Source of the DNA: Gammaproteobacteria bacterium
GTDB lineage: Bacteria > Pseudomonadota > Gammaproteobacteria > JBIOEC01
NCBI GenBank assembly: GCA_965279305.1
Contig: OZ257143.1
Location: 720,001-752,000 of the forward strand
Length of the DNA: 32,000 nt
Reading direction: 5' to 3'
Shown: one piece after another, positions 7,208-29,183 of the stretch
Position numbering within the stretch: position 1 is the first letter of the stretch
Layout of the letters: each line of letters starts with the position of its first letter
The notes under the pieces: generated by a model
The model's input: the letters and a program-made list of their open reading frames with translations, nothing else
Database searches by the model: none
Told to the model about the DNA's origin: nothing
Position numbers and translations under genes: made by a program

Positions 7208-7672
7208 ATGATAAACGTATTACTTTATTTATTTAATCGCGAAAAAGTAGATAAACAAATATTTACCACTCATAGACTTGAGATCCAGCAAGAATTGGCA
7301 GCTGAACGTTTTCCTCCGCATGCGATCACGCAAGCATTGAATTGGTTAAAAGAATTGAAAGAGCAGATCACTGATGTTTCATTGCGAGACAATTTAAGCT
7401 CAAATAGCATCAGAATATGGTTACCCGCTGAGTTAAGTAAACTAGGTATAGACGCTTTAGATTTTTTATCGGATTTGGAAAATCAAGGTGTATTAAATGC
7501 TTGGCAGCGTGAAATTATTGTTGATAGAGCGATGGCTATCAATACTCCAAAAGTAGATTTGGAAGTATTTAAATCCATTACCTTAATGGTGCTTTATCAT
7601 TATCAAAATGAAGGCATTTCTATTCCCTGGATAGAACATGTATTAACTAAAGATACTTTGAAAATGCATTAA
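7208..7672 (+). CDS. smg: Smg protein (DUF494)
   Basis: The N-terminus MINVLLYLF and the C-terminal half (ITLMVLYHY) resemble E. coli Smg (MFDVLMYLF... ILMVLFN). The position between dprA and topA also fits. Confidence 0.85.
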   Translation: MINVLLYLFNREKVDKQIFTTHRLEIQQELAAERFPPHAITQALNWLKELKEQITDVSLRDNLSSNSIRIWLPAELSKLGIDALDFLSDLENQGVLNAWQREIIVDRAMAINTPKVDLEVFKSITLMVLYHYQNEGISIPWIEHVLTKDTLKMH

Positions 7673-7691
7673 ACCAATAGAGAGCAGACGA

Positions 7692-10256
7692 ATGAGTAAA
7701 GCCAAAACAAGCAAGAAAACGACGACGAAAAAATCTTCAGATAAAATTGAAGCACTGCCTGCTAAAAAAGCGGTTAAAAAGCCATCAAGCAGTGCTGCCA
7801 AAAAAACAGTAAAAACCAAAACAACTGCTGCTAAAAAGCCAAGCAGCAAAGCAGCTAAAAAAGCCCCTGCAGCTAAAAGCACTAAAGTAGCTAAAGCAAA
7901 AAAAACGTCGGCAGCAGACAAAAGCAAAAAAGTCAGTAAAGAAACCATTGTTCCTAGAAAATTTAAACCAACAGAAAATCTGTTAATTGTAGAGTCTCCT
8001 GCTAAATCTAAAACCTTAACCAAATATTTGGGGCCTACATTTACTATTCTGGCATCTTACGGACATGTACGTGATTTAGTGCCTAAAGAAGGTGCAGTAG
8101 ATCCTGAGCATGATTTCAAAATGCGTTATGATCTTATCGAAAAAAATGCTAAACATGTTGAAAATATAATTTCGGCTCTTGAAAATGCTAGTAACCTCTA
8201 TCTAGCAACGGATCCTGACCGCGAAGGAGAAGCCATTGCTTGGCATTTATATGAAATATTAAAAGAAAGAGGCGTGTTAGCGGGCAAAAAAGTTCAGCGT
8301 GTAGTCTTTAACGAAATTACTAAAACTGCAGTAACGGATGCTATTCAAAATCCTCGTAACTTGGCAATGCCATTAATCAATGCGCAGCAAGCACGTAGAG
8401 CATTAGATTATTTAGTAGGATTTAATTTATCACCGCTTTTATGGAAAAAAGTGAGAAGAGGACTTTCTGCAGGCCGTGTGCAAAGCCCAGCCTTACGACT
8501 TATTGTAGAAAGAGAATTAGAAATTGAAGCTTTTAATAGCCAAGAATACTGGAGTATTTTGGCCCATGCCGCTCATCACAAACAAGCCTTCTCAGCCAAA
8601 TTAAACGAATATCAAGGTGAAAAGCTTACCCAATTTAGTGTAACCAATACAGAACAAGCTACAGATATGCGTGATGCCTTATTAAAATCGGCTAAAGGCG
8701 AATTACGTGTTAATAAAGTAGAGCGTAAACAGCGCAAACGCAATCCGGCGCCTCCTTTTATCACTTCAACCTTACAACAAGAAGCCGCGCGAAAACTAGG
8801 CTTTACAGCACAACGTACTATGCGTACGGCGCAGCAATTATATGAAGGTGTGGATGTAGGTGGTGGTGCTTCGGGTCTTATTACTTATATGCGTACTGAC
8901 TCTGTGCATTTAGCTCAAGAAGCTTTAATCGATATTCGCGCTGCTATTGAAGATAAATATGGTAAAGCTGCCGTGCCAGATGAACCTCGTTTTTATAAAA
9001 CGAAAGCAAAAAATGCACAAGAAGCGCATGAGGCTATTCGCCCCACTTCTGCATTTAGAACACCTGAAAGCATTCGCTCTGCCTTATCAGAAGAACAATA
9101 TAAATTATATAAACTGATTTATAACCGTACCTTAGCTTGCCAAATGATTTCTGCCACCATTGATACCGTTTCAGTGGATTTGATTAGCGGCGAAAACAAT
9201 ATGTGGCGTGCTAGTGGTTCTACCGTGGTTGATCCCGGATTTTTATCTGTATATGAAGAAGGCGTGGACGACCAGAAAAAAGAAGATGGCGAGGATATGA
9301 CTCTGCCTAACTTTAAAGAAGGTGAGATAGTTACTTTAGACGATATTGAAAACAAACAACATTTTACAGAACCACCACCACGTTATTCAGAAGCTTCTTT
9401 AGTAAAAGCCTTAGAAGAATTTGGTATTGGTCGTCCTTCTACTTATGCATCAATTATTTCTACTTTGCAACATCGTGAATATGCCGAATTAGATAATAAA
9501 CGATTTAAACCTACTGATGTAGGCCGTATTGTGACTAAATTCTTAACCGAATATTTTGCTAATTACGTAGATTATGATTTTACCGCCAAAATGGAAGATG
9601 AGTTAGATTCTATTGCACGCCATGAAAAAGAATGGGTACCTGTATTAACAGAGTTTTGGAAACCTTTTCATGACCAAGTGGAATTAATTAATACCACGGT
9701 AAAACGTAGTGATGTGACGCAAGAAAAGATAGAGGAAAAATGCCCTAAATGTGGCGCTCCTTTAAGTATTCGTTTAGGAAGACGCGGGCGCTTTATTGGT
9801 TGTACCGCTTATCCTGAGTGTGATTACACCCGCAGCATGGATGAAACTAAAGAAGAATCATTAGCACCTTCGGTAGTAGAAGGGCGCATGTGTGCTGAAT
9901 GTAATTCACCATTAGTGATCCGTCATGGGCGTTTTGGTAAATTTATTGGGTGTAGTAATTATCCCAAGTGTAAACATATTGAACCTTTGCAGCAGCCTAA
10001 AGATACTTCCGTGACATGTCCTTCTTGTCACCAAGGTACTATGCTTCAACGTCGTTCACGTCGGGGCAAAATCTTTTTCTCCTGCTCACGTTATCCTACT
10101 TGTGATTATGCAATATGGAACGAGCCTGTGGCTAAACTGTGCCCTGAATGTAAATGGCCGGTGATGACTATTAAAGTAACTAAACGAAATGGACATCAAT
10201 TGGTTTGCCCACAAAAAAATTGCGGCCACACCGAACCTTATCATCCCCCCGAATAA
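7692..10256 (+). CDS. topA: DNA topoisomerase I with a ~94-aa lysine-rich N-terminal extension and four C-terminal C4 zinc ribbons
   Basis: TOPRIM motifs LLIVESPAKSKT and DPDREGE are present, along with the active-site block GLITYMRTDS (E. coli GYITYMRTDS). There are four CxxC...CxxC modules (CPKC..CTAYPEC, CAEC..CSNYPKC, CPSC..CSRYPTC, CPEC..CPQKNC). ATG 7692 is the only ATG or GTG start upstream of the TOPRIM domain. Confidence 0.95.
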   Translation: MSKAKTSKKTTTKKSSDKIEALPAKKAVKKPSSSAAKKTVKTKTTAAKKPSSKAAKKAPAAKSTKVAKAKKTSAADKSKKVSKETIVPRKFKPTENLLIVESPAKSKTLTKYLGPTFTILASYGHVRDLVPKEGAVDPEHDFKMRYDLIEKNAKHVENIISALENASNLYLATDPDREGEAIAWHLYEILKERGVLAGKKVQRVVFNEITKTAVTDAIQNPRNLAMPLINAQQARRALDYLVGFNLSPLLWKKVRRGLSAGRVQSPALRLIVERELEIEAFNSQEYWSILAHAAHHKQAFSAKLNEYQGEKLTQFSVTNTEQATDMRDALLKSAKGELRVNKVERKQRKRNPAPPFITSTLQQEAARKLGFTAQRTMRTAQQLYEGVDVGGGASGLITYMRTDSVHLAQEALIDIRAAIEDKYGKAAVPDEPRFYKTKAKNAQEAHEAIRPTSAFRTPESIRSALSEEQYKLYKLIYNRTLACQMISATIDTVSVDLISGENNMWRASGSTVVDPGFLSVYEEGVDDQKKEDGEDMTLPNFKEGEIVTLDDIENKQHFTEPPPRYSEASLVKALEEFGIGRPSTYASIISTLQHREYAELDNKRFKPTDVGRIVTKFLTEYFANYVDYDFTAKMEDELDSIARHEKEWVPVLTEFWKPFHDQVELINTTVKRSDVTQEKIEEKCPKCGAPLSIRLGRRGRFIGCTAYPECDYTRSMDETKEESLAPSVVEGRMCAECNSPLVIRHGRFGKFIGCSNYPKCKHIEPLQQPKDTSVTCPSCHQGTMLQRRSRRGKIFFSCSRYPTCDYAIWNEPVAKLCPECKWPVMTIKVTKRNGHQLVCPQKNCGHTEPYHPPE

Positions 10257-10279
10257 AATAGTACAGTGAAATGCAAGAC

Positions 10280-11429: not shown

Positions 11430-12191
11430 ATGGAATATTGTGATCCTAATTGGGCGAATATTTTTGAAGCAAATCATCTAGGCAATTTTGATGCATGGTG
11501 GGATCTAGATTTACCTACGGTTGATAGTGGAAATTTTGGGCGTGGTGGTCGTAGCCTTGTCAGTCGCTATGTGATCCGCATGCCAGATGGAAAAAAACAA
11601 GCCATTTATATCAAAAAACAACAAAACTATAACTGCTCGAGCTGGAAATCACCTTTCTCTGGAATACCTACTTTTGAACGAGAGTATATCAATTGGAAAC
11701 GTCTTAAGGGTTTAGGTATCGGCACTTACGATTTAGCGTATTTTGCAAAAAGACGTGAAGGGAAAGATATGCAGGCTGTTTTAGTGAGTATTGAATTACC
11801 TGCTATCGATTTGGTCGAATACACAGAAAATAAAGTATATCAAAACGCTCCAGCCATTTTTAAGCAGCGTCGACAAATTATTTTTAATACAGCACGTATG
11901 CTAAGAAAAATGCATGATGCGGGTTTAAAGCATGGTCATTTATCACCTAAACATGTTTTTGTGGGTGGGTTACCAGAGCATATGAGAATGTATCTAATTG
12001 ATATGGAATTAATGCGTAAAATATGGTGGCGTTATTTTGCAATGCTAAATGACTTATCTCGTTTTTCAAAACGAATGAAAGAGTGCAAACAAACTGAGCG
12101 CATGCGATTTCTGTTGGATTATTTGGGCGAACCCAGATTAACACCTAAAGTGAAACGTATTTGGAAAGCGATTGGAAAGAGAATTAAATGA
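11430..12191 (+). CDS. Lipopolysaccharide kinase (Kdo/WaaP/InaA) family protein, with an atypical catalytic loop
   Basis: The kinase-like layout runs IYIKKQQ (candidate ATP-binding Lys), ...RKMHDAGLKHGHLSPKHVFV (catalytic-loop equivalent), ...YLIDMEL (metal-binding Asp). The stop overlaps the aroE start (ATGA at 12188-12191). Confidence 0.6.
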   Translation: MEYCDPNWANIFEANHLGNFDAWWDLDLPTVDSGNFGRGGRSLVSRYVIRMPDGKKQAIYIKKQQNYNCSSWKSPFSGIPTFEREYINWKRLKGLGIGTYDLAYFAKRREGKDMQAVLVSIELPAIDLVEYTENKVYQNAPAIFKQRRQIIFNTARMLRKMHDAGLKHGHLSPKHVFVGGLPEHMRMYLIDMELMRKIWWRYFAMLNDLSRFSKRMKECKQTERMRFLLDYLGEPRLTPKVKRIWKAIGKRIK

Positions 12192-13006
12192 AAAAAAATT
12201 ATCTAGCCTTATTCGGAGAGAATATCTCACAGAGTTACTCTCCTTATTTCCATCAAGAGTTTATTAAACAATTTCCTGATGAACTAGTTGAACCGTTAGT
12301 ATATGAAAAAATTTCAGTGACTCCTTATAACTTTAATTTTTTATGGTTAAAGTTTTTAGCAAAAAGTGGAATGGGCGCGAATGTGACAGCACCTTGTAAG
12401 CGCTTAGCATTTTCTTTATGCACTCGCACCAGCAAAGCCGCTAAAAAAGCAGGCAGCATTAATACTATTCGTGTAGAAAGCGAAACCGAATGGTATGGCG
12501 ATAATACTGACGGTATTGGTTTTATTCGAGATATTGTTGATTACCACGGTCATTCCTTAAAAGGAAAACGTATTTTAGTATTGGGCGCCGGTGGTGCTGC
12601 AGCGGGTATCATTCCTGCCATTGCAGAACAAGAACCTGAACAAATAATCGTAGCGAATCGTTCTTTAAAAAATGCTGAACTGATTGCCGAAAAAAACGCA
12701 GGAATATCTATTTATGATTTATCTACTATTCCAGCCGATTCTTTTGATTTTATTATTAACACCGCTACAGAGCTCCCTCTATCGGAACTGGCCATTTCAT
12801 TCAGCCCAGAATGTGTTGCTTATGATATTCGCTATACGCCTTCTGCTCAGCCTTTTAAGCAATGGGCCAAGCAAAAAGGAGCCGGTCATATTTATGATGG
12901 TTATGGCATGTTATTAGAGCAAGCAGCAGCCTCGTTTGCGGTATGGTTTGGGGTTCAGCCTCGCACCGATATCTTGCGGCAAAAGCCTGGCCATCATAAT
13001 CCATAA
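12188..13006 (+). CDS. aroE: Shikimate dehydrogenase
   Basis: Motifs SYSPYFH, GANVTAPCK, GDNTDGIGF and the NADP-binding GAGGAA are present and collinear with E. coli AroE. Confidence 0.88.
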   Translation: MKKNYLALFGENISQSYSPYFHQEFIKQFPDELVEPLVYEKISVTPYNFNFLWLKFLAKSGMGANVTAPCKRLAFSLCTRTSKAAKKAGSINTIRVESETEWYGDNTDGIGFIRDIVDYHGHSLKGKRILVLGAGGAAAGIIPAIAEQEPEQIIVANRSLKNAELIAEKNAGISIYDLSTIPADSFDFIINTATELPLSELAISFSPECVAYDIRYTPSAQPFKQWAKQKGAGHIYDGYGMLLEQAAASFAVWFGVQPRTDILRQKPGHHNP

Positions 13007-17522: not shown

Positions 17523-19901
17523 ATGCAAGCAGTAAGACTACCCCTAAGTGCAAGAACAACTTTATTAGCAGTTGCCCCCGTCAATAATGTTACTGTGATC
17601 AGTAATGCATTTGAGGCTGCACAGCGAGCCATAAAACAAGTGTGCATTAATATGAAGTTCGAGGGTCCAACTAGTGTTAGCACTAAAAATTTATTGATTT
17701 TAAGAACGAATAATAACGAGGTAGATCGCTTAACAAGGGCTACAGACGAAGACATTAAAACACTTTATTCAGAAGTAAAATCCACCAAAACACTAAAAGA
17801 CCAACAACGAGAAAAATTAAAACTATCCATCAATAGATGTAATAAAAAGACAGCGGCGTTATTGATAGAAAGAATCGTTTATTTATTGCAAATACTAATG
17901 GGCAGTCTCAGTTTAAAAACCTTTACCGATGAGTTTTGTAATAATGTTTTAATAAAAAATATTAATATTTTTTTAAACTACTTGGAGTCCTGGAGAAAAG
18001 CATTCCCTGAGGATAATGAAAAAGACATAGAGGAATTCATAGCTTTAGCTTCAAGCTCTGAACTAGACAACATTGGTTCAATTAGAAATTTAATAATCAA
18101 AGCTAAAGAATTAAGAGAAAAACTTTATATATATAGTAATAGTAAATTAGTAAAAGAGGTGGTCGAAAGTGCCGGTAGGTTAGTTGAAGTAAATGATACA
18201 CCATTTCCACCTTTTATAACTGCCAGATTGAATATCGATCTTTCATCAGAAAAATCAGTGATGTATTTCAATGATCTCGTAAAAGTAATAGTTAATATAA
18301 AGGATTATATTAAGGAGTTATCTCAAGATATTCAAAAGAAAGAACAATCAGACAAACTCATTTTCTTGGTTAAATCATTTTATGAGATTTGCAATGGAAT
18401 GCTAATTCAGTCTTCACATTTTGTCGATTTTGATGATGAATCGCGTTCAGAAAATCCTGGCGCTAGTTTGTTTTATTCGATTTATTTACATCTAAATGGA
18501 GATGGCCGGGATATTAAAGATATTCCTAAATCTGAAATGTTTAACTGTGTTAGAAATTTAATTGAAACGTGGCCCTCTCAAGATATGAATGTTCATCATA
18601 ATACTGTTCAGTTGTTTACAGGTTTGATGAATTTAAGAAATGAAAATTCATATTTTAAAGATCTGAAGTTTGAAAAAGATTCTCCTTATTATTTATCAAT
18701 GTATGGTGCTGTTACTGTTCATGATATTATAAATAATATAAAAGATTTATGTGGTTTTATTTTAAAATATGAATTCTATTTGGAAAATATTATTTCGTTT
18801 GTGGAGAATTGGTTGTCTACAGTTTCTGATAGATATGAATCCATTCTTAAAAAAGAGATTTCAAATGAAGAACAACGATCTAAACCTACAGTAGAGTTAC
18901 CAGCAGTGCATGTAGCTCGTCTTACAGAAGAAGAGATAGAAGCGATGATGATGGAGGAAGATACCCCGGGAAAGTCAGAATCAGGAAAAAGAAAGAAAAG
19001 AAAACCAAGAAATCGAAATAAGGTGGGATCTGCAGCTACTAAATCAGATAAATCTGAGGAGATTGAACCTGAATTAGTTGCATCTGAAGTGCTTGAGAGC
19101 GATCGTCAAGTAGTTGCTCATACAAAAGCTGAGCAAGTTGTAGAGCCAATTATACAAAAAAAAGAAGAACAACCAGCAGCAGATTTGTCACAAGAAGAGC
19201 CCCTAGTAGAAGAAAAAACAATCGCCCCTGTGCCTAATGCATTTGAAGCTCTTCCTAAAAGCATTGGTGAAGGCATAGACTCTTACAAAAAAGCACTTCA
19301 TCTTTGGAAAGATGCATTTGAATCTTTTGAAAGAAATAAAGACGTATCTTTAGTGGATCAACAAAGAATGTTTGATTTTTTTAGAATATTCCCTAAAAAG
19401 CCTGTTAGAGATCGATTTTCTGAAAGACATAAAGAAGTATTGGCTCAGATTAAAATGGTCGCCGATTATTTTATTCCTTTAGTTGAAAGCGCATATGCGC
19501 CTACGCTTGAAGTTTCTATTCCTATTGAAGTAATAGATCTAAGAGATGCTGAAAGTAAAATTAGTTTTATTGTTAATCAAATATCGGTATGTGTTAAAAA
19601 ATATGTAGAGCAGGCCGTCAATTATGAAGAATTACAAGGTTTTTTTGTTTCTGATGCTCAATATTTATTAACTGCTTTAAATGCGATTAATAGAATTCTA
19701 GAGGCCGATTGTAGTGGTAATTTAAGAAAATATGCTTTTGAATTTTCTAAAAATGAACTTTTACCCTATATGCCTGCTATAAAATCGGTGGCAAGAAATG
19801 CGGCTGGTTTTGTAGATAAAATAAATGATGCGGAAAGCGAATTTTATAGATTAGGACTTTCTGCGCCTGTAGCAACAAGAAATATGGCTGGACCTACTTA
19901 A
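17523..19901 (+). CDS. Large orphan protein (up to 792 aa), apparently mostly helical, with a central charged low-complexity linker
   Basis: This is a long uninterrupted ORF in very AT-rich DNA. My hand counts give about 20-30% GC in sampled 60-nt lines, against about 38-47% in neighbouring genes. I see no recognisable enzyme motifs. The start is uncertain (ATG 17523 or ATG 17652), and neither has a strong SD. Confidence 0.6.
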   Translation: MQAVRLPLSARTTLLAVAPVNNVTVISNAFEAAQRAIKQVCINMKFEGPTSVSTKNLLILRTNNNEVDRLTRATDEDIKTLYSEVKSTKTLKDQQREKLKLSINRCNKKTAALLIERIVYLLQILMGSLSLKTFTDEFCNNVLIKNINIFLNYLESWRKAFPEDNEKDIEEFIALASSSELDNIGSIRNLIIKAKELREKLYIYSNSKLVKEVVESAGRLVEVNDTPFPPFITARLNIDLSSEKSVMYFNDLVKVIVNIKDYIKELSQDIQKKEQSDKLIFLVKSFYEICNGMLIQSSHFVDFDDESRSENPGASLFYSIYLHLNGDGRDIKDIPKSEMFNCVRNLIETWPSQDMNVHHNTVQLFTGLMNLRNENSYFKDLKFEKDSPYYLSMYGAVTVHDIINNIKDLCGFILKYEFYLENIISFVENWLSTVSDRYESILKKEISNEEQRSKPTVELPAVHVARLTEEEIEAMMMEEDTPGKSESGKRKKRKPRNRNKVGSAATKSDKSEEIEPELVASEVLESDRQVVAHTKAEQVVEPIIQKKEEQPAADLSQEEPLVEEKTIAPVPNAFEALPKSIGEGIDSYKKALHLWKDAFESFERNKDVSLVDQQRMFDFFRIFPKKPVRDRFSERHKEVLAQIKMVADYFIPLVESAYAPTLEVSIPIEVIDLRDAESKISFIVNQISVCVKKYVEQAVNYEELQGFFVSDAQYLLTALNAINRILEADCSGNLRKYAFEFSKNELLPYMPAIKSVARNAAGFVDKINDAESEFYRLGLSAPVATRNMAGPT

Positions 19902-20695: not shown

Positions 20696-22858
20696 ATGAC
20701 TCCAGCCGATTTACTTGATGGGTTAAATCCCGCTCAATACGATGCCGTAACCACCGAAAAGAAGTACTTATTGGTGCTTGCTGGTGCGGGCAGTGGTAAA
20801 ACACGAGTATTGGCTCATCGTATGGCTTGGCTATTACATATTAATAGAGCCACGCCTTTTAGTATTTTGGCGGTAACTTTTACCAACAAAGCGGCTCATG
20901 AAATGCGCCGCCGAATTGAACATTTAGTAGGTGCACCGCTTCCTCATAGCTGGGTTGGCACTTTTCATGGATTAGCGCATCGCTTATTACGCCAGCATTG
21001 GCAAGAAGCCGGTTTACCTCAAGAATTTCAAGTATTAGATGCAGATGATCAGTTACGTATGATTAAACGTATTATGCGCGAACGCAGCATAGATGAGTCG
21101 CATTGGCCGCCTAAACAATTTCAATGGTTTATTAATGCGCGCAAAGATGAAGGGGTGCGTGCCGCTCACTTACCTACACCCTTTGATAAAGCCGGTATTT
21201 TGTTTCAACAAATGTATCAAGAATACGAACAGGCTTGCCAACGCTCAGGTTTAGTGGATTTTGCCGAATTATTATTACGGTCTTTTGAAATATTGCGTGA
21301 TAATCCCACTTTGCTTAGCAATTATCATAATCGTTTCAAACAAATTTTAGTGGATGAGTTTCAAGATACCAATTCATTGCAATATAAATGGTTAAAACTA
21401 TTAGCCGGCAGTGATGCAGAATTAATGATAGTAGGCGATGACGACCAATCGATTTATGGATGGCGCGGTGCTAAGATTGAAAATATTCATCAGTTTTCTA
21501 TTGATTATCCCGATGCACAAACATTACGTTTGGAACAAAATTATCGTTCTACTTCTACTATTTTGGATGCCGCCAATGCCTTAATTAGCCATAATACCGA
21601 TCGCTTAGGTAAAGAGTTATGGACGGAAGGTAATAAAGGCGAACTGATTTCTTTATACGCCGCCTTTAACGAATTAGATGAAGCTCGATTTATTGTAGAC
21701 CGCATACAAAACTGGGTGCGCACACAAGGTGGTAGTTATAGTGATGCAGCTATTTTATATCGTTCAAATGCGCAATCTCGCGTATTAGAAGAAGCTTTAT
21801 TACATGAAAATATTCCTTATCGTATTTTTGGTGGGCAACGATTTTTTGAACGTGCTGAAATTAAAGATGCTTTAGCTTATTTACGCTTAATTTCTAATCG
21901 AGATGATGATGGTGCATTTGAGCGCGTAGTGAATACGCCCACTCGCGGTATTGGAGAGCGCACCGTTGAATTATTACGTGAGCAAGCCAGAGGGATGTCA
22001 GGGTCATTATGGCGCGCTGCTGAAAAAATGATTCAAGAGGGAAGCTTATCAGGCCGTGCTGCCAATGCCGTGAATTTATTTTTAGAGTTAATTGGTGAGT
22101 TAGATATTTCTACTAAAGAAAAAGCATTAGATGAACAAATGGCTTATGTATTAGATCACAGCGGTTTAATACAGCATGTGCAAAATGAAAAAAGTGAACG
22201 CAGCTTAGCACGCTTGGAAAACTTACATGAATTAATCAGTGCGTGTAGAGAATTTGGAGAAGACAGAGAAGCCGATGAAACGATGTCGCCTTTAGTCGCG
22301 TTTGTTTCACATGCAGCTTTAGAATCAGGCGAAGGTCAAGCAGAAGGCATGACTGAGTGCGTGCAACTCATGACATTGCATACCGCCAAAGGTTTAGAAT
22401 TTCCTTTAGTATTTTTATCCGGTATGGAAGAAGGTTTATTCCCGCATGAACGTTCTAGAGAAGATATTACTCAACTCGAAGAAGAGCGACGCTTATGTTA
22501 TGTAGGCATGACGCGTGCCATGAAAAAATTATATTTAACCTGCGCTGAAGCGCGCCGTTTACATGGGCGAGAGCTGAATGCTTTTCCTTCACGGTTTATT
22601 CGTGAAATTCCTGCTGAATTAATAGAAGAAGTACGCTTGCGCCAAACCGTTATTCTTCCCCATCAAATGGAAGAAAGCCAAATAGAAGGTTTACGTTTAG
22701 GTCAACGGGTCAGACATCCTAAATTTGGTGAAGGCGTGATTGTGAATTACGAAGGCAAAGGTGCTCATGCCCGAGTAGAAGTGAAATTCCGTACCGATGG
22801 TACTAAATGGCTAGTATTGGCTTATGCCAACCTAGAACCCGCCGAGGATGTTTACTAA
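20696..22858 (+). CDS. uvrD: DNA helicase II (UvrD, SF1A)
   Basis: From ATG 20696 the protein reads MTPADLLDGLNPAQYDAV...LLVLAGAGSGKTRVL, which aligns with the E. coli UvrD N-terminus and gives 720 aa. Walker A GAGSGKT, motif II DEFQDT, TLHTAKGLEFP and VGMTRA are present. The 30 upstream codons of the ORF (20606-20695) overlap the divergent GDPD gene and are probably not translated. Confidence 0.93.
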   Translation: MTPADLLDGLNPAQYDAVTTEKKYLLVLAGAGSGKTRVLAHRMAWLLHINRATPFSILAVTFTNKAAHEMRRRIEHLVGAPLPHSWVGTFHGLAHRLLRQHWQEAGLPQEFQVLDADDQLRMIKRIMRERSIDESHWPPKQFQWFINARKDEGVRAAHLPTPFDKAGILFQQMYQEYEQACQRSGLVDFAELLLRSFEILRDNPTLLSNYHNRFKQILVDEFQDTNSLQYKWLKLLAGSDAELMIVGDDDQSIYGWRGAKIENIHQFSIDYPDAQTLRLEQNYRSTSTILDAANALISHNTDRLGKELWTEGNKGELISLYAAFNELDEARFIVDRIQNWVRTQGGSYSDAAILYRSNAQSRVLEEALLHENIPYRIFGGQRFFERAEIKDALAYLRLISNRDDDGAFERVVNTPTRGIGERTVELLREQARGMSGSLWRAAEKMIQEGSLSGRAANAVNLFLELIGELDISTKEKALDEQMAYVLDHSGLIQHVQNEKSERSLARLENLHELISACREFGEDREADETMSPLVAFVSHAALESGEGQAEGMTECVQLMTLHTAKGLEFPLVFLSGMEEGLFPHERSREDITQLEEERRLCYVGMTRAMKKLYLTCAEARRLHGRELNAFPSRFIREIPAELIEEVRLRQTVILPHQMEESQIEGLRLGQRVRHPKFGEGVIVNYEGKGAHARVEVKFRTDGTKWLVLAYANLEPAEDVY

Positions 22859-23658
22859 AGAGCAAACACTTCTTGTATCTCGGGTTTGTTATATTCAGCT
22901 TTCCCTACCTTTACTAATAAATTATCTAAGGGTTGATATTCTGCTTTACTATGGGTATGCCCGCATAGCACCAAGAAATTAATGGAACTATTTTCTTGAG
23001 CAACTTTCATAAGAACATCACCTAGTACCTTTGATGTAAAATAGGGTAGCCAATCATCATTACTTACCTTTCCTTCATATAAACTAGTCTCTTTGAAGGG
23101 TGGTACATGTGTTAACACAATGATATTTTCAGGAGATTGGGAAATGGCCTGGTGTAAATCATTTTGCAATTGCATGGCATCCATATCAGCCAACTCTCGC
23201 ATTTTTTCTAATAAATGTGATTTACTGAGTAATTTTTTTTGGAATAAATCGGCAATTAAAAGACTATCATTAATAGATACATTGCTATTAGAGTTACCTA
23301 AACGACCGTCAGCCCATCCGTCTTGGCCTAAGAGTAAAGTATTAGCATTTAATTTTTGGATCCCTGCTGCCGGTAACCAGAATAAGTGTTGATTCTCCTT
23401 TGTTAAAGAAGTCATTGATTCACGCACTTCTGTTATCTGGCCTCTGTAATAGTCATGATTTCCCAATATGAAATAGATGGGTTTTTTAATATGTTCAGCC
23501 ATCTCAATTAGACTATCACTCAAATCAGAGGCTTCTGCGATATCGCCACTAATAAACAATGCATCACATTTTAAATTAATAATTTCTTGATAGTATTTAA
23601 TACGAGTGGCTTTGTCCAAAAAATTAAGGTGAATATCGGTTAACCAAGCTGCATTCAT
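22855..23658 (-). CDS. Calcineurin-like metallophosphoesterase (resembles class III cyclic-nucleotide phosphodiesterases), third gene of the cassette
   Basis: All five canonical blocks are present in order: TDIHLN (DxH), SGDIAE (GD), GNHDYY (GNHD), LTHVPP (H) and CGHTHS (GHxH). The ATG lies 5 nt after the stop of the upstream nucleotidyltransferase gene. Confidence 0.8.
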   Translation of the reverse strand: MNAAWLTDIHLNFLDKATRIKYYQEIINLKCDALFISGDIAEASDLSDSLIEMAEHIKKPIYFILGNHDYYRGQITEVRESMTSLTKENQHLFWLPAAGIQKLNANTLLLGQDGWADGRLGNSNSNVSINDSLLIADLFQKKLLSKSHLLEKMRELADMDAMQLQNDLHQAISQSPENIIVLTHVPPFKETSLYEGKVSNDDWLPYFTSKVLGDVLMKVAQENSSINFLVLCGHTHSKAEYQPLDNLLVKVGKAEYNKPEIQEVFAL

Positions 23659-23663
23659 AAAAA

Positions 23664-24380
23664 TTACTCATTATTAGAACCTATCATTTTTTTGATACGT
23701 GCTATCACGATTTGAACGCGTTGCATGGTAGTTGGCCCTTCATTTAAATGGCCTGGCAATGCAACCAAAAACTGTTCATTGCTTAACATATTTTCAAAGA
23801 AATCTCGGATATAAGCTTTTAATTGATCGGTTGCTAGCAATACTTCGTCAGCAATCGTTGTTCTACCTGAAATAACATTAATGACATCTTCTAAATCATG
23901 ACTTTTTAAAAAATCATTATTACCTCTTCCTTTAAATGCTTCTATTTTAGTGGCAATAAAATAAGGTGCGGTAACGGATTTAATCATTACATCATCAGCA
24001 ATCTTATGAGGTATTGAATGCTCTAGTGCTTCCTTATACCAAGAATTACCAAAGCCAAGTATTTTGTCATTTAATGGCATGACATCTAAAATAATCTCAT
24101 CGTGATGCCAACGACAAATAATATCGTCCTTTATTGATTGTTTGAACCCTTTTTTCTCCAACCTTTTTGAAAATTTATTATATTCTCCTAATGATATAAC
24201 ATCAATAATACAATCTACATCTAATGTGGATCTGACATCAGAGGAAAGCGGATCATTAATAAATAAAGCAGTAGTGCAACCACCTAAATAGACAACTTCA
24301 TTATTAAGTTCTTCCAGCCTTCTTGCTATAATCTCTAGCATTGCTAAATTAGATGTAGCTTGGAAATATTTATTGCTCAT
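23664..24380 (-). CDS. Minimal nucleotidyltransferase-fold protein (AbiEii/DUF2204-like), second gene of the cassette
   Basis: The Pol-beta-type NTase signature is present: YLGGCTTAL (hGG), 17 residues, then LDVDCIIDV (DxD), with a third acidic strand IILDVMP. The downstream helix ATKIEAFKGRG...SHDLEDVINVI resembles the K...R(x)D...D segment of AbiEii-type proteins. The start ATG overlaps the upstream gene by 11 nt. Confidence 0.65.
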   Translation of the reverse strand: MSNKYFQATSNLAMLEIIARRLEELNNEVVYLGGCTTALFINDPLSSDVRSTLDVDCIIDVISLGEYNKFSKRLEKKGFKQSIKDDIICRWHHDEIILDVMPLNDKILGFGNSWYKEALEHSIPHKIADDVMIKSVTAPYFIATKIEAFKGRGNNDFLKSHDLEDVINVISGRTTIADEVLLATDQLKAYIRDFFENMLSNEQFLVALPGHLNEGPTTMQRVQIVIARIKKMIGSNNE

Positions 24381-24954
24381 GATTAATTCTTTCTTTTAAT
24401 AATTTAATTGCAATGTCTCGTTCTCTGGCGCGTCCGGCACGAATAGCATCCACTAATACTAACATTTCATAAAAAAGATTATCAGGGTATGTCGCTAACG
24501 ATTCAGGAACTGAACGATAAAGCGGTTCTAATGCTATGCCACGCTCTAAAATCAAATTACTATGATTATCTTCAGCATATGGCCAAACAGGAATAGGATC
24601 GTTGCCTAATATAATATGTTTTTTAAATATTGGAGCAGCATAGCTAGTAGGAATTCCACGCGTGTAGGTTCCAAATTCGGCGGGGAAGAAATATTTTACA
24701 CCAGATATTAAGCATTCTTCATAAGCTGATTTGATGGGTAAAAATACTAATTCTTTTTGCCTTCCTTCCCCTTGAAACATGGGCCCCATTAGTCCGGAAA
24801 GTACGAGCCGTTTAATGCCAGCGTTTACTTCTGAGGTGCTCATGCATAAAAGTGTGGCCAGTTTATTTTGAGATAAAGAGGCCAGATACCCTTTTGTTAA
24901 GGTCATGGTAGACATGATTTTCAAAAGAATAACAATATCTTGTGGTTTCAGCAT
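24370..24954 (-). CDS. Winged-helix DNA-binding protein with an uncharacterised C-terminal domain (AbiEi-like candidate), first gene of the cassette
   Basis: The N-terminal ~60 aa (PQDIVILLKI...NKLATLLCMSTSEVNAGIKRLVLSGLMG) has the helix-turn-helix-wing pattern of MarR/AbiEi-type wHTH domains. The size of 194 aa is like AbiEi antitoxins. A 35-bp palindrome lies 43 nt upstream of the start. Confidence 0.6.
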   Translation of the reverse strand: MLKPQDIVILLKIMSTMTLTKGYLASLSQNKLATLLCMSTSEVNAGIKRLVLSGLMGPMFQGEGRQKELVFLPIKSAYEECLISGVKYFFPAEFGTYTRGIPTSYAAPIFKKHIILGNDPIPVWPYAEDNHSNLILERGIALEPLYRSVPESLATYPDNLFYEMLVLVDAIRAGRARERDIAIKLLKERINHEQ

Positions 24955-24996
24955 GCTTTTATGCCTGTTTGATTAATTGGATATAGTATAGCATAA

Positions 24997-25031
24997 GCAT
25001 TCGCTATTCGCGAATCGCGAATAGCGAATGC
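24997..25031. promoter_or_regulatory. Perfect 35-bp palindrome, candidate operator of the wHTH-NTase-phosphoesterase cassette
   Basis: gcattcgctattcgcga-a-tcgcgaatagcgaatgc has 17-bp arms, a single central base and no mismatches, checked base by base. On the minus strand a TATACT -10 candidate (24985-24990) lies immediately downstream, so the palindrome covers the -35 and spacer region. Confidence 0.6.
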
Positions 25032-25080
25032 TGGTTGTCAGATCAGGTTGAAAGCAGCTTTTTGGACTAAAATGCTTCAT

Positions 25081-25110
25081 AATGGAGAATAGTCAAGACT
25101 ATTCTCCATT
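25081..25110. repeat. Inverted repeat forming a 13-bp stem and 4-nt loop hairpin
   Basis: aatggagaatagt-caag-actattctccatt is a perfect stem. On the minus strand it is followed by ATGAAGCATTTTAG, a weak T-run. It may terminate the small ORF at 25210-25437 and insulate it from the cassette promoter. Confidence 0.4.
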
Positions 25111-25159
25111 ACGCTTTGGAAAAGTCAGCTTTGAAAGAGCGGAGTGGGTTTAAAGCAGT

Positions 25160-25187
25160 CCCCTCTAGCCTACTTTGGGTAGAGGGG
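25160..25187. repeat. Inverted repeat (8-bp stem, 12-nt loop)
   Basis: cccctcta (25160-25167) pairs with tagagggg (25180-25187). There is no adjacent T-run on either strand. Confidence 0.3.
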
Positions 25188-25209
25188 ATATGGTAAAATC
25201 GCTAAAGAT

Positions 25210-25437
25210 TTAGCGAGGGTGGAAGGATAATGGCTGAGCGGGAGCACTAAGAGGGTGATGATTATTCAAAGCACCAGCAGCACTTCCATTATTTTCAAGA
25301 GCTAATTGTATACCTAGGTGGCTGGCGCCTGCGGCAACCGTGACATAAGCAGCAGCATAAGTAGCAGATGCTATTGTATTTACGGGAGCTTTTGCAACAT
25401 ATAAACCCGCTTGGTAAGCGAAAGCTAATAATTTCAT
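25210..25437 (-). CDS. Small Ala/Gly-rich hypothetical protein (75 aa from the internal Met)
   Basis: The ORF has a good SD: the minus strand reads AAAGAGGTACCCTATG, giving MKLLAFAYQAG... It is divergent from polA. The composition is low-complexity (Ala-rich), so coding status is uncertain. Confidence 0.35.
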   Translation of the reverse strand: MKLLAFAYQAGLYVAKAPVNTIASATYAAAYVTVAAGASHLGIQLALENNGSAAGALNNHHPLSAPAQPLSFHPR

Positions 25438-25509
25438 AGGGTACCTCTTTAACATAAAACTTAGTTGGTCGTATAGTATAATATTAAAAGTCAGTAAGCA
25501 AGCAAAAAT

Positions 25510-28227
25510 ATGGTAGAAAACACTTCAAAGCCCTTTATTCTAGTCGATGGTTCAGCCTATTTATTCAGGGCTTTTCATGCGCTTCCCCCGCTGACTAATA
25601 GTCATGGAGAACCGACTGGCGCCGTGTATGGGGTTGTTAGCATGTTGCGAAAGCTATTAGCCGATTATGATCCCACTTATATAGCAGTGACGTTTGACAC
25701 TAAAGAGAAGACCTTTAGAGATGACTTATATCCAGAATATAAAGCGCATCGTAAAGAAACCCCTCCAGAATTGATTAGCCAATTCCCTATTTTAGTCGAA
25801 GTGGTAAAAGCTATGGGATTGCCCGTATTGCAAGTGCCAGGAGTAGAAGCCGATGATGTGATGGGCACATTGGCGGTTCATGCAACACAACAAGGTTGGA
25901 AAACATTAATTTCCACTAGCGATAAAGATTTGGCTCAGCTTGTGAATACCGAAGTGACTTTAATGAACACCATGACAGATACTTTTTTAGATGAAGCCGG
26001 TGTGTTAGAAAAATTTGGTGTAAACCCTAATCAGATCATTGATTATTTAACACTGATTGGCGATACCAGTGATAATGTTCCTGGTGTTCCTAAAGTAGGT
26101 CCTAAAACCGCAGCCAAATGGTTAGCCGAATATCAAACACTAGATAATATTATAACTCATGCGAATGCTTTCCCTGGAAAAGTCGGTGAGTATCTACGTC
26201 AAAGTGTAGGACAAATTCCGTTATCCAAACAATTAGTCACTATCAAATTGGATGTTGAATTGGATACCCATATCACCGATTTAAAAAGAAATGCACCTGA
26301 TAATGAAACACTTAAAAAATTATATCAGCGTTTAGAATTTAAAAAATGGTTAAATGAAGTATCGCAAGAAAAAGGCGTAAATCCAGAATACACCGAAATT
26401 CCTACCGATTTAACCCCTATATTAAAATCATATGTCACTATTTTAGAAAAATCGCAATTAGATGAATGGATAGAAAAAGTTAAAAAAGCCAAAATATTTG
26501 CAGTGGATACCGAAACCAATAGTTTAGATCCTCTTACTGCAGAGCTAGTAGGTATTTCCATGGCTATCAATAATGAAGCGGTTTATATTCCATTAGCCCA
26601 TGATTATATGGGTGCACCTGAACAATTAGATCGCAATGAGGTATTAAATACTTTAAAACCCTTATTAGAAGATCCCACCTATATTAAAATTGCTCAAAAT
26701 ATTAAATATGATTGGTCTATCTTAATTCGATATGGCATTAATATTCAAACCGCCCAGTTTGATACTATGTTGGAATCATACGTGCTTAACAGCACGGCTA
26801 GTCGCCATAATATGGATAGTCTAGCGCGATATTATTTACAAAGAAGCACTACGTCATTTGAAGATATTGCAGGAAAAGGCGTTAAACAAATTACCTTTAA
26901 TCAAATAGAAATAGCACAAGCGTCACCTTATGCTGCTGAAGATGCTGATGTTACTTTAGAATTACATCAATATTTTTGGCCAAAAATAGAAGAAGATGCA
27001 GGCTTAAAGCGAGTGTTTACCCAATTAGAAATGCCTTTGGCATTAGTATTAGCGCGCATGGAGCAAAGAGGCGTGTTAATTGATGCCGATTTACTAAAAC
27101 AACAAAGCCAAGAGCTTGATGAAAAGATTAAAGTATTAGAGAAAACCATTTATGATTTAGCCGGAGAAGAATTTAATGTAAGTTCTCCTAAACAGTTGCA
27201 AGAAATATTATTTACTAAATTAAAATTACCCAGCACAGCCAAAACCCCTACAGGGCAACCATCAACCGCAGAATCGGTGTTACAAGAATTAGCGTTTGAA
27301 TATCCTATGCCTGCGCTTATTTTAGAATATCGTAGCTTAAGTAAATTAAAATCCACTTATACCGATAAATTACCCGAGCAGATCCACGCATGTACTGGGC
27401 GTGTGCATACCTCTTATCACCAAGCGGTCACAGCAACAGGGCGATTATCGTCATCGGATCCCAATTTACAAAATATTCCTATTCGTACACCCGAAGGCCG
27501 TCGCATTCGACAAGCCTTTATTGCGCCTAAGGGATCTAAAATTATTGCGGCCGATTACTCACAAATTGAATTACGTATTATGGCGCATTTATCCAATGAT
27601 CCAGGATTGTGCGATGCCTTTTCAAAAGGTTTAGATATTCATAAAGCAACAGCAGCTGAAGTATTTAGTGTGCCTTTAGCGGAAGTGACAGGTGAGCAGC
27701 GCCGAAATGCAAAAGCGATTAACTTCGGTTTGATTTACGGAATGTCGGCTTTTGGTTTGGCTAAACAAATTGGTGCCGATCGTAATACCTCTCAAGAATA
27801 CATTGATCATTATTTTAAACGATATCCCGGTGTTAAAGAGTATATGGAAAACACGCGTAAACAAGCCTCTCAATTAGGCTATGTCACTACCGTATGGGGA
27901 AGACGTTTATATTTGCCTGATATTAATGCGAGTAATCATATGCGTAAAATGGCAGCAGAGCGCACCGCTATTAATGCGCCTATGCAAGGAACGGCAGCGG
28001 ATATTATTAAAAAAGCTATGATCGATATTGATATTTGGTTACAACAAAACCCTCAAATAGGGCATATGGTTATGCAAGTGCACGATGAATTAGTGTTTGA
28101 AGTGGCCGAAGATAAAATAGATTTTTTTATTCCTAAGCTTCAAGAAATGATGACACAAGCTATAGAATTGTCAGTGCCATTAGTGGTTGATATAGGAATC
28201 GGTAATAATTGGGATGAAGCCCATTAA
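25510..28227 (+). CDS. polA: DNA polymerase I
   Basis: The protein has a 5' nuclease N-terminus, the 3'-5' exonuclease ExoI motif FAVDTETNSLD, and polymerase motifs A (DYSQIELR), B (RRNAKAINFGLIYG) and C (QVHDEL). It is 905 aa. Confidence 0.96.
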   Translation: MVENTSKPFILVDGSAYLFRAFHALPPLTNSHGEPTGAVYGVVSMLRKLLADYDPTYIAVTFDTKEKTFRDDLYPEYKAHRKETPPELISQFPILVEVVKAMGLPVLQVPGVEADDVMGTLAVHATQQGWKTLISTSDKDLAQLVNTEVTLMNTMTDTFLDEAGVLEKFGVNPNQIIDYLTLIGDTSDNVPGVPKVGPKTAAKWLAEYQTLDNIITHANAFPGKVGEYLRQSVGQIPLSKQLVTIKLDVELDTHITDLKRNAPDNETLKKLYQRLEFKKWLNEVSQEKGVNPEYTEIPTDLTPILKSYVTILEKSQLDEWIEKVKKAKIFAVDTETNSLDPLTAELVGISMAINNEAVYIPLAHDYMGAPEQLDRNEVLNTLKPLLEDPTYIKIAQNIKYDWSILIRYGINIQTAQFDTMLESYVLNSTASRHNMDSLARYYLQRSTTSFEDIAGKGVKQITFNQIEIAQASPYAAEDADVTLELHQYFWPKIEEDAGLKRVFTQLEMPLALVLARMEQRGVLIDADLLKQQSQELDEKIKVLEKTIYDLAGEEFNVSSPKQLQEILFTKLKLPSTAKTPTGQPSTAESVLQELAFEYPMPALILEYRSLSKLKSTYTDKLPEQIHACTGRVHTSYHQAVTATGRLSSSDPNLQNIPIRTPEGRRIRQAFIAPKGSKIIAADYSQIELRIMAHLSNDPGLCDAFSKGLDIHKATAAEVFSVPLAEVTGEQRRNAKAINFGLIYGMSAFGLAKQIGADRNTSQEYIDHYFKRYPGVKEYMENTRKQASQLGYVTTVWGRRLYLPDINASNHMRKMAAERTAINAPMQGTAADIIKKAMIDIDIWLQQNPQIGHMVMQVHDELVFEVAEDKIDFFIPKLQEMMTQAIELSVPLVVDIGIGNNWDEAH

Positions 28228-29183
28228 AAAATCCGAGGTTGTGTTGCAGCTGAATTAGGTGCGGGTGCTTCAAGCTCATTCACCGCATTTTTAACTGCTT
28301 CGGGTACATTGAACGGTAATTTTAAAAATAAACGTTTATCAGTTTTTAGCTCTGCTTTTAACTTTCTTTCTGAAACACCTGTTGCCCAATTTGTTAACGT
28401 ATTTGCAAAAATAATGGTTTCTAATGCAATCTCTCCAGAGTATCGATATAGCATATAAATTGGGCTAATGATAGAAAGCACCAGAAATGGTAATAACACA
28501 AGACACAGAATAAAAGAAATATAATATTCAATACTAGAAACAGGATGGTTAATTTGATCGAGAAAATCTTTCAAGTAATCAGTCATGTAAGTAAAATAAA
28601 TGGCAGCTACGATGATAACACCCAATCCTATTAAATATTTGGTAGATAATGTTGATAATTCGTACAAGACCTGGGCGTTGCTACTACTGGATTTTTCTAA
28701 ATCATTAAATAATTGTCGAGTTTCTTGATTTAAGAAAGCTAAATCTTGGGTTAAGGCTTCATTGGTAAGAAAAGGAGAGAGAGGTAAATTATTTTTAATA
28801 GCGACTTGTTGAATAGCCAATAAATTATTGAATAAAGCTCTTTTAACTATATCTCTATAAACCAAATGAATAGCATCAGTGGGTAAGCACGAACTTTTTT
28901 TAAGCGCTTCTACTTGGCGTTGTCCTGCTTTTCCATGTTGCCAGATAATTCTAGCAAGGGTTTCACCTAAAGGGTGAGAGTTTAGCGCTGGGTGATTAGG
29001 TTTTAAAGCTTGAAATAAGCTGGGATTTGGGGCAAGTATAAGCACTACCAGCGCGTGGATAAAATTGTTAGCGATATCACGATGGGCAATATCCGTTATC
29101 TGCGATTTAGGCACAGGCCAATTACGATGACTACTCACCACTGAGAAAGCACGAATAAAATGATTATAAAGATTCCCTGCCAT
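28224..29183 (-). CDS. Orphan membrane protein with a C-terminal pair of hydrophobic helices
   Basis: This 319-aa ORF has two long hydrophobic segments (YLIGLGVIIVAAIYFTYM and YYISFILCLVLLPFLVLSIISPIYMLY) separated by about 20 residues. I recognise no conserved motifs. Its stop shares TTAA with the polA stop. Confidence 0.55.
   Translation of the reverse strand: MAGNLYNHFIRAFSVVSSHRNWPVPKSQITDIAHRDIANNFIHALVVLILAPNPSLFQALKPNHPALNSHPLGETLARIIWQHGKAGQRQVEALKKSSCLPTDAIHLVYRDIVKRALFNNLLAIQQVAIKNNLPLSPFLTNEALTQDLAFLNQETRQLFNDLEKSSSSNAQVLYELSTLSTKYLIGLGVIIVAAIYFTYMTDYLKDFLDQINHPVSSIEYYISFILCLVLLPFLVLSIISPIYMLYRYSGEIALETIIFANTLTNWATGVSERKLKAELKTDKRLFLKLPFNVPEAVKNAVNELEAPAPNSAATQPRIF

Follow-up and report, generated by a model that had tools for sequence, protein, structure and literature searches.

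PDC-M21 is a defence candidate listed in the supplement of Payne et al. (2024; bioRxiv 10.1101/2024.01.29.577857) as the three-family cassette CAS_00093, with 166 occurrences. According to the same supplement it is one of 145 candidates obtained through 'guilt by embedding' in BREX, DISARM and type I restriction-modification (RM) loci, and its two-gene form, with 713 occurrences, was rejected as a candidate. In AbiE and MenAT systems, nucleotidyltransferase (NTase) toxins are silenced by phosphorylation. Antitoxin-induced auto-phosphorylation beside the catalytic Asp neutralises MenT1 (T39) and MenT3 (S78) (PMC11375011), and AbiEii is neutralised by antitoxin-induced auto-phosphorylation of T65 (bioRxiv 10.64898/2026.01.19.700257). 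The PP2C phosphatases SaSTP and PstP dephosphorylate phosphorylated AbiEii and MenT3 in vitro, and the role of phosphatases in toxin reactivation in vivo 'remains to be explored' (bioRxiv 10.64898/2026.01.19.700257). A three-gene cassette related to these systems is described here from a Gammaproteobacteria bacterium (assembly GCA_965279305.1, contig OZ257143.1, positions 720,001 to 752,000). This whole stretch of 32,000 nucleotides is referred to as the window, and coordinates are those of the window unless another locus is named. The genes, in transcriptional order g1, g2 and g3, encode a winged helix-turn-helix (HTH) protein, an NTase and a calcineurin-like metallophosphoesterase (MPE).

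The cassette matches two of the three PDC-M21 components and is an MPE variant of that catalogued candidate. Gene g1 (24370-24954, minus strand, 194 aa) matches the PADLOC model PDC-M21A (E 6.5e-39), and g2 (23664-24380, minus strand, 238 aa) matches PDC-M21B (E 3e-71). Gene g3 (22855-23658, minus strand, 267 aa) matches none of the three PDC-M21C models, and the same holds for its Legionella orthologues. PADLOC would therefore detect only two of the three genes here. The product of g3 belongs to Pfam PF00149 Metallophos (E 5.8e-15; 56.7 bits against a cut-off of 21.5). The first-pass annotation of this DNA had regarded the three-component arrangement as undescribed; PDC-M21 is already catalogued as winged HTH, NTase and phosphatase, the phosphatase being a PP2C. 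We read the cassette as a mobile three-gene module of the toxin-antitoxin (TA) or abortive-infection type, belonging to the PDC-M21 family, in which the MPE replaces the PP2C; our confidence in this reading, together with the working proposed below, is about even.

Genes g1 and g2 overlap by 11 nt, with the ATG of g2 lying within cATGagcaaTAA, the last codons of g1, and the ATG of g3 follows the g2 stop at a distance of 5 nt. The stop codons of g3 and of the convergent uvrD overlap by 4 nt (22855-22858), which leaves no space for a terminator 3' of g3; a terminator scan at this junction found none. On the other side of the cassette, polA starts at 25510. The open reading frame (ORF) coordinates thus agree with the first-pass description of one tightly coupled minus-strand operon with -11 and +5 nt junctions, placed between uvrD and polA. 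Its assignments of an N-terminal winged HTH to g1, a Pol-beta NTase signature to g2 and five calcineurin-like blocks to g3 also stood up, as detailed below for each gene.

Linkage of the three genes was analysed in a scan with one genome per species, which yielded 363 loci with g2 relatives, of which the best 80 were used. Gene g1 adjoins g2 in 77 of these 80, and among the loci whose upstream region could be assessed no intact g2 lacked g1. A full-length g3 immediately follows g2 in 46 loci, and truncated g3 remnants do so in about ten more; 14 loci have no g3, and the remaining loci end at contig edges. The gap between g2 stop and g3 start is -4 to +18 nt in 40 of 43 loci (median 4). The flanks are unrelated, as the largest shared cluster among 427 neighbouring ORFs spans only 7 loci. 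Because the three genes are kept together amid unrelated flanks, they move as a unit, and the cassette is mobile. The nearest relatives are found in Legionellaceae and in metagenome-assembled genomes (MAGs) of Gammaproteobacteria, and the polA/uvrD site is common only to one close relative, whose g2 is 89% identical. The first-pass annotation had named a uvrD-linked housekeeping phosphoesterase as one outcome that would speak against its proposal. This candidate was rejected, since uvrD, polA or glpQ occurs near the cassette in 0 of the 80 related loci and g3 is linked to g1-g2 across unrelated contexts.

The tally of the third gene is based on samples, namely 80 loci from genomes, 80 from metagenomes and 40 plasmid matches, the last being those listed from a tblastn search with g2 that gave 117 plasmid records. 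Of these 40 plasmid matches, 25 have a PP2C gene adjacent to the g2 homologue. A gene matching PDC-M21C follows the NTase in Agrobacterium fabrum, Acinetobacter haemolyticus, Duffyella, Pseudoalteromonas and Pseudomonas aeruginosa pHN39-SIM; the proteins from Agrobacterium and Acinetobacter, the two that were scanned against Pfam, are PP2C. The Acinetobacter haemolyticus cassette adjoins brxL/pglZ (BREX). The MPE form is also present in the close relative, on the Legionella pneumophila chromosome and on an L. adelaidensis plasmid. With PP2C in some lineages and MPE in others, two unrelated phosphatase folds share one cassette slot. Two-gene forms occur in Cylindrospermopsis, Hymenobacter and Deinococcus, and Bradyrhizobium retains a PP2C remnant. 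Where g3 is missing from the genome loci, the genes downstream are an integrase, ribF, cydA, hslV and prfH-like and M78/HTH genes. Replacement of g3 by another third gene was rejected for these loci, as the downstream genes are unrelated and none matches PDC-M21C. Several Legionella species and MAGs retain full-length g1 and g2 while their g3 is degraded or missing. The cassette occurs in many L. pneumophila strains; in one of them (CP115863.1, locus L165) the phosphoesterase is truncated to 182 aa.

The NTase g2 has 1202 homologues in the 90% cluster database, and its profile finds 5042 representatives at 50% identity clustering (E<=1e-3). Residues G33, G34, R50, T52, D54, D56, D99, K145, R152, D162, E164 and D165 are invariant among 12 homologues at 31-65% identity from Legionella, Agrobacterium, Acinetobacter, Pseudomonas, cyanobacteria, Bacteroidota and Deinococcus. 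They comprise the Pol-beta core (G33-G34, D54-V-D56, D99) and a C-terminal K/R/D motif, as in AbiEii. The AlphaFold 2 (AF2) model of g2 has a predicted local distance difference test (pLDDT) score of 78, falling below 50 in the catalytic loop (residues 42-56). A Foldseek search with this model retrieved MenT1 (8an5 and 8rr5, the latter phosphorylated at T39) with E 6e-4 to 1e-3 and probability 1.0, at TM-scores of 0.4-0.54 and 13-16% identity. It also retrieved the Helicobacter pylori DUF1814 NTase JHP933 (E 5e-3) and ANT(2'')-Ia. By sequence, the PDB contains a weak NTase-like match only (5uvd, E 0.02 to 0.5). An Acinetobacter relative of g2 reaches PF08843 with E 2.6e-4 and 21.4 bits, just below the 22.5-bit cut-off, and some g2 relatives carry the NCBI names AbiEii or AbiGii. 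By these matches g2 is a Pol-beta-fold NTase with fold-level kinship to the DUF1814 toxins MenT1, JHP933 and AbiEii, and it is proposed to be the toxin.

The Thr52 codon (24225-24227, minus strand) lies in the invariant R50-x-T52-x-D54-x-D56 and marks a candidate auto-phosphorylation acceptor. AbiEii neighbours carry R-x-S-x-D-x-D, which hhalign aligns column for column with the R-x-T-x-D-x-D of g2. The position of T52 corresponds to MenT1 T39-R40-D41, MenT3 R76-x-S78-K79 and AbiEii T65. As in MenT toxins, a Ser/Thr stands two residues before a catalytic Asp on a loop that is modelled with low confidence and is presumably flexible.

The regulator g1 has 755 homologues in the 90% cluster database, with a mean column identity of 72%. 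Its AF2 model contains a winged HTH at residues 4-73 (three helices and a beta wing), followed by a helical C-terminal part. Residues 100-150 are the most conserved stretch, yet they are modelled with low confidence; the conserved C-terminal motif reads YTRG..SYAAP..DPIPVWP..RG.ALEPLY. Against Pfam only HTH_36 was hit, below the cut-off (E 0.0045), and structure and PDB sequence searches gave only weak, generic MarR-like matches (MarR/AdcR, E about 0.1). A 6-residue insertion, NHSNLI (24550-24567, about residues 130-135 of g1), is located in the most conserved region and is missing from all 23 aligned g1 homologues.

Upstream of g1 lies a perfect palindrome of 37 bp (24996-25032), with 18-nt arms that are 100% complementary around a 1-nt centre (AGCATTCGCTATTCGCGA-T-TCGCGAATAGCGAATGCT); it is built of four ATTCGCN heptads. 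The first-pass annotation had recognised it as perfect and given its length as 35 bp, which is 2 bp short. Shuffling the 160-nt upstream region 1000 times gave best arms with a mean of 5.3 nt and a maximum of 10 nt. A putative extended -10 element (TGcTATACT, 24985-24993, minus strand), read by eye from the sequence, lies 31 nt before the g1 ATG and 2 nt past the palindrome, and the promoter is probably located there. A consensus promoter scan upstream of g1 called no promoter because the -35 is poor. Palindromes with TTCGC half-sites are found upstream of g1 in related loci, usually 40-60 nt before the start codon; examples are TTCGCGA-n-TCGCGAA and, in a more distant clade, CTGTTCGCGAACAG. 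A few lineages have other half-sites at the equivalent position (ATTCAAGA, ATTCTAGAAT). At least two TTCGC/GCGAA half-sites are present in the last 100 nt before g1 in 63 of 72 loci, compared with 39 of 1600 random windows (2.4%) drawn from those 72 loci. This enrichment supports a conserved operator that co-evolves with g1. Inverted repeats in the gene's own promoter, as described for AbiEi, are present and conserved. The palindrome is proposed as the operator through which g1 may repress its own operon, and g1 is proposed to be both autorepressor and antitoxin.

All five MPE blocks of g3 are invariant (D8xH10, G38D39, G66N67H68D69, H184 and G233H234xH236), and the subfamily, which is highly conserved, has the additional invariant motifs GQDGWADGR and WLPYF. 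The nearest solved structures match weakly and in the N-terminal part (E 0.03-0.6; GpdQ 0.03, LpxH about 0.3), and profile matches to ApaH and CpdA are likewise weak. PDB and homologue searches found neither a close solved structure nor a named function for the subfamily. Among metagenome homologues with at least 52% identity to g3, 14 of 20 have g1 and/or g2 adjacent. Gene g3 comes from a wider family of stand-alone enzymes, one clade of which is tied to g1-g2 by a strong link that is not obligatory.

Taken together, the cassette would be an autorepressed AbiE/MenAT-like (type VII-like) module whose operon-encoded phosphatase strips an inhibitory phosphate off the toxin. The winged HTH of g1 would bind the 37-bp palindrome and keep the operon repressed, and the conserved C-terminal part of g1 would bind g2 and induce auto-phosphorylation of Thr52, next to the catalytic Asp54 and Asp56, switching the toxin off. 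MenA1/MenT1, MenA3/MenT3 and AbiEi/AbiEii serve as the model for this silencing. In its active state, g2 would stop translation by adding nucleotides to the acceptor ends of tRNA. By removing the phosphate from Thr52, g3 would quickly re-arm the stored inactive toxin once g1 has been lost or is inhibited, as might happen during phage infection or when the element is lost; the cassette might act in phage defence. The parts assigned to g1 and g3 are suggested by the literature on auto-phosphorylation combined with an invariant T52 on a presumably flexible loop. Loss of g3 from loci with intact g1-g2, together with the lack of intact g2 without g1 among the evaluated loci, is consistent with an activator rather than an antidote.

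The first-pass annotation had proposed that the phosphoesterase was recruited to the module and could act as an eraser of the NTase product or as an effector. Linkage of the phosphoesterase to g1-g2 is borne out by the 46 of 80 loci with full-length g3 after g2. Both suggested roles appear less likely than that of a toxin-directed phosphatase, given that PP2C acts on phospho-Ser/Thr and that AbiEii and MenT toxins are silenced by auto-phosphorylation. As an eraser, g3 would be a phosphodiesterase that trims nucleotides added by g2 to tRNA 3' ends, or hydrolyses a signal made by g2, and would constitute a second, enzymatic antitoxin. The DxH, GD and GNHD motifs would suit this role, as would the weak relatives GpdQ, LpxH, ApaH and CpdA, which are of phosphodiesterase or pyrophosphatase type. 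A precedent for a hydrolase antitoxin exists in the small alarmone hydrolases paired with toxSAS toxins, which reverse a modification of the tRNA 3' end; the paper on the toxin FaRel2 is said to cover the toxin side only, namely pyrophosphorylation of the tRNA 3'-CCA. We nevertheless consider an eraser unlikely, since the slot is filled in most relatives by PP2C, an enzyme of phospho-Ser/Thr monoesters and not of phosphodiesters. Repeated loss or truncation of g3 next to intact g1-g2 would be unexpected for a detoxifier, and g1-g2 pairs lacking a third gene are common (713 against 166 cassettes; 14 of 80 loci). Metallophosphoesterases serve as nuclease or nucleotide-depleting effectors in some defence systems, and g3 could act in this way, degrading nucleic acids or depleting nucleotides, if g2 were a sensor or signal-making NTase as in the cyclic-oligonucleotide-based anti-phage signalling system (CBASS). 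Gene g3 has a very weak PADLOC match to 'Effector/Endonuclease' (E 0.011), and phosphoesterase effectors are mentioned in PMC12839542. Such an arrangement is very improbable, as g2 resembles toxin NTases (MenT1, JHP933) and none of the PADLOC models for CBASS or CD-NTases matches it. Moreover, the two-gene form is commoner than the three-gene form, g3 is a single catalytic domain of 267 aa with no sensor domain, and a PP2C in the same slot would be implausible as a killer.

It is also conceivable that g3 has no functional relation to g1-g2 and is a widespread stand-alone phosphoesterase that by chance travels with a two-gene TA module or provides a frequent landing site for it. Homologues of g3 outnumber those of g2 and g1 (4650 against 1202 and 755), g3 decays frequently, and solitary copies exist at 55-67% identity, some of which show no g1 or g2 remnants. 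At 41-48% identity, g3 homologues stand essentially never beside g1/g2 (1 of 36 in metagenomes), and no conserved neighbours were found for them. These solitary copies indicate a g3 that is independent of the module. A fortuitous association is still distinctly unlikely in view of the -4 to +18 nt junctions in 40 of 43 loci amid differing surroundings and of the 14 in 20 close metagenome homologues with g1 and/or g2 adjacent. An unrelated phosphatase fold at an equally tight junction in other lineages would be hard to explain by chance.

Against the preferred reading, in which g3 is a phosphatase that re-arms the g2 toxin, weighs not only this independent occurrence of g3 but also the sequence of the enzyme. 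It has TDIHLN, SGDIAEA and GNHDYY in place of the GDxHG, GDxVDRG and GNHE signatures of phosphoprotein phosphatases (PPP), and the closest solved structures, all weak matches, are those of phosphodiesterases or pyrophosphatases, so that a protein substrate is unsupported by the sequence itself; the missing PPP signatures lend no support to protein phosphatase activity but are compatible with it. A toxin-activating phosphatase within the toxin's own operon would need extra control. Pfam, structure and PDB sequence searches detected no likeness of g1 to AbiEi, MenA or DUF6088; a distant fold kinship of its C-terminal part to AbiEi-type antitoxins is possible. No Pfam family is found for g2 even at E<=1, PF08843 (AbiEii) included, and when the g2 family is compared by hhalign with five genuine AbiEii sequences, the probability is 6.8%. 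Foldseek returns modest TM-scores (0.4-0.55), and the model has low confidence in its catalytic loop. Of the AbiE relationship claimed in the first-pass annotation, the likeness in toxin fold holds and membership in the Pfam AbiEi/AbiEii families does not. PDC-M21 is itself a putative defence system; we know of no defence phenotype for the cassette, and neither IMG/VR contigs nor GenBank phages yielded homologues.

The surroundings of the cassette recurrently include integrases, a P4-type DUF927 protein, insertion sequence transposases, Schlafen/AlbA_2 proteins and genuine pairs of AbiEii and DUF6088. In L. pneumophila LT632617.1 (locus L163), genes flanking the cassette match the PADLOC candidates PDC-S31 (9544-10275, minus strand, E 3e-27) and PDC-S15/FRG (11629-12600, minus strand, E 1e-18), with a type I RM system, transposases and a Schlafen/AlbA_2 gene close by; the whole looks like a small defence island. 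A canonical AbiE-type gene (DUF6088 antitoxin or PF08843 AbiEii) is found near the cassette in L049 (7507-8163), L056 (7504-8160), L055 (6867-7574) and L064 (7525-8478). It starts 23-25 nt after g3 in L049 and L056 and about 60 nt after it in L064; in L055, where g3 is situated upstream, its start is about 170 nt past g2. A general association of g3 with canonical AbiE genes (DUF6088/AbiEii) was rejected as anecdotal, with only 8 of 124 g3 loci. The MAG contig L080 has a partial g2 at 3535-4110 and, 3.5 kb away, homologues of g1 and g3 (7637-9716) separated by a g2-sized gap. This suggests a second, probably complete cassette and may reflect duplication or decay within one island.

Stand-alone copies of g3 are often located in TA-rich spots with PIN, DUF6088 or HipA genes. 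Examples are L092 (3902-4813, minus strand), L084 (742-1431, minus strand) and L083 (3692-4857 and 5809-6192), where genes for a HipA-like kinase, a HipA-N/HTH protein, a PIN toxin and DUF6088 antitoxins stand beside g3 homologues of 56-67% identity. HipA toxins also auto-phosphorylate. By analogy, the g3 phosphoesterase family may serve more than one type of phospho-regulated toxin.

Between polA and the cassette of the window lies a small ORF (25210-25455, minus strand) encoding an Ala/Gly-rich product of 81 aa. The close relative L082 has a 75-aa ORF at the equivalent place (8961-9188), and none of the other 80 loci yielded a homologue, which places the small ORF outside the mobile cassette. 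A second perfect inverted repeat (25080-25111; TAATGGAGAATAGTC-tt-GACTATTCTCCATTA, 15-nt arms, 2-nt gap) is located about 50 nt upstream of the operator palindrome, to which it is unrelated in sequence. An imperfect third hairpin (25159-25188) directly follows the small ORF. Either repeat could be a terminator of the small ORF or a further binding site. The G+C content is 31-35% in the cassette and about 40-43% in uvrD and the polA ends; polA also dips to 33%, and the low value of the cassette is not decisive. The uvrD-polA block is flanked by a 792-aa ORF (17523-19901, plus strand), whose product is Lys/Glu-rich with one low-complexity acidic stretch, and by a 319-aa ORF (28224-29183, minus strand).

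More broadly, and at somewhat less than even confidence, PDC-M21-type cassettes may be self-contained phospho-switch toxins that need no kinase and have recruited a phosphatase twice, PP2C in many Proteobacteria and MPE in Legionellales. The presence of two unrelated phosphatase folds in one slot argues strongly, on comparative grounds, that dephosphorylation belongs to the logic of the system. If the proposed function is correct, the phosphatase of these cassettes would be the first enzyme of a TA or abortive-infection system dedicated to toxin reactivation and would answer how auto-phosphorylated AbiEii/MenT toxins are re-armed. The cassette provides a candidate function for a large uncharacterised MPE subfamily and a testable model of toxin activation, for which L. 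pneumophila, a carrier of the cassette, is a tractable organism. PADLOC-type searches overlook the third gene of the Legionella-type variant. In a literature search PDC-M21 was not found by name in the main text of papers, and no paper was found that pairs DUF1814 with PP2C, or AbiEii with a metallophosphoesterase in such a role, or that deals with an NTase-toxin cassette carrying its own phosphatase.

Compared with described systems, g3 has the five MPE motifs and a weak N-terminal likeness in common with the GpdQ, LpxH and CpdA/Icc phosphoesterases and differs from them in GQDGWADGR and WLPYF, with E-values of only 0.03-0.6. With MenAT of Mycobacterium tuberculosis the cassette shares the best structural match of its toxin (MenT1) and a phospho-acceptor position kept on a flexible loop; it differs in the low identity (13-16%) and modest TM-score of g2, in a MenA that is unrelated to g1, and in that MenAT operons have no phosphatase. 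AbiE, a type IV/VII TA and abortive-infection system, likewise has a winged HTH first gene, inverted repeats in its own promoter and an overlapping downstream NTase with GG, DxD, D and C-terminal K...R...D..ED motifs and a Ser/Thr two residues before the catalytic Asp. In contrast to AbiE, g1 and g2 have no significant Pfam match to AbiEi, DUF6088 or PF08843 (hhalign 6.8%), genuine AbiEii/DUF6088 pairs sit as separate neighbours in some cassette loci, and the phosphatase is encoded in the operon, the phosphatase studied with AbiEii being the general SaSTP of the host. By these comparisons the cassette would work like AbiE or MenAT, yet it lies outside the Pfam AbiEi/AbiEii families. PDC-M21 has the A and B components side by side, the same order of winged HTH, NTase and phosphatase with overlapping or near-overlapping junctions, and the same defence and mobile-element settings, BREX and type I RM among them. 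In third position it has a PP2C (PDC-M21C), whereas the cassette of the window has a calcineurin-like metallophosphoesterase there, a form that is concentrated in Legionellales-like Gammaproteobacteria.

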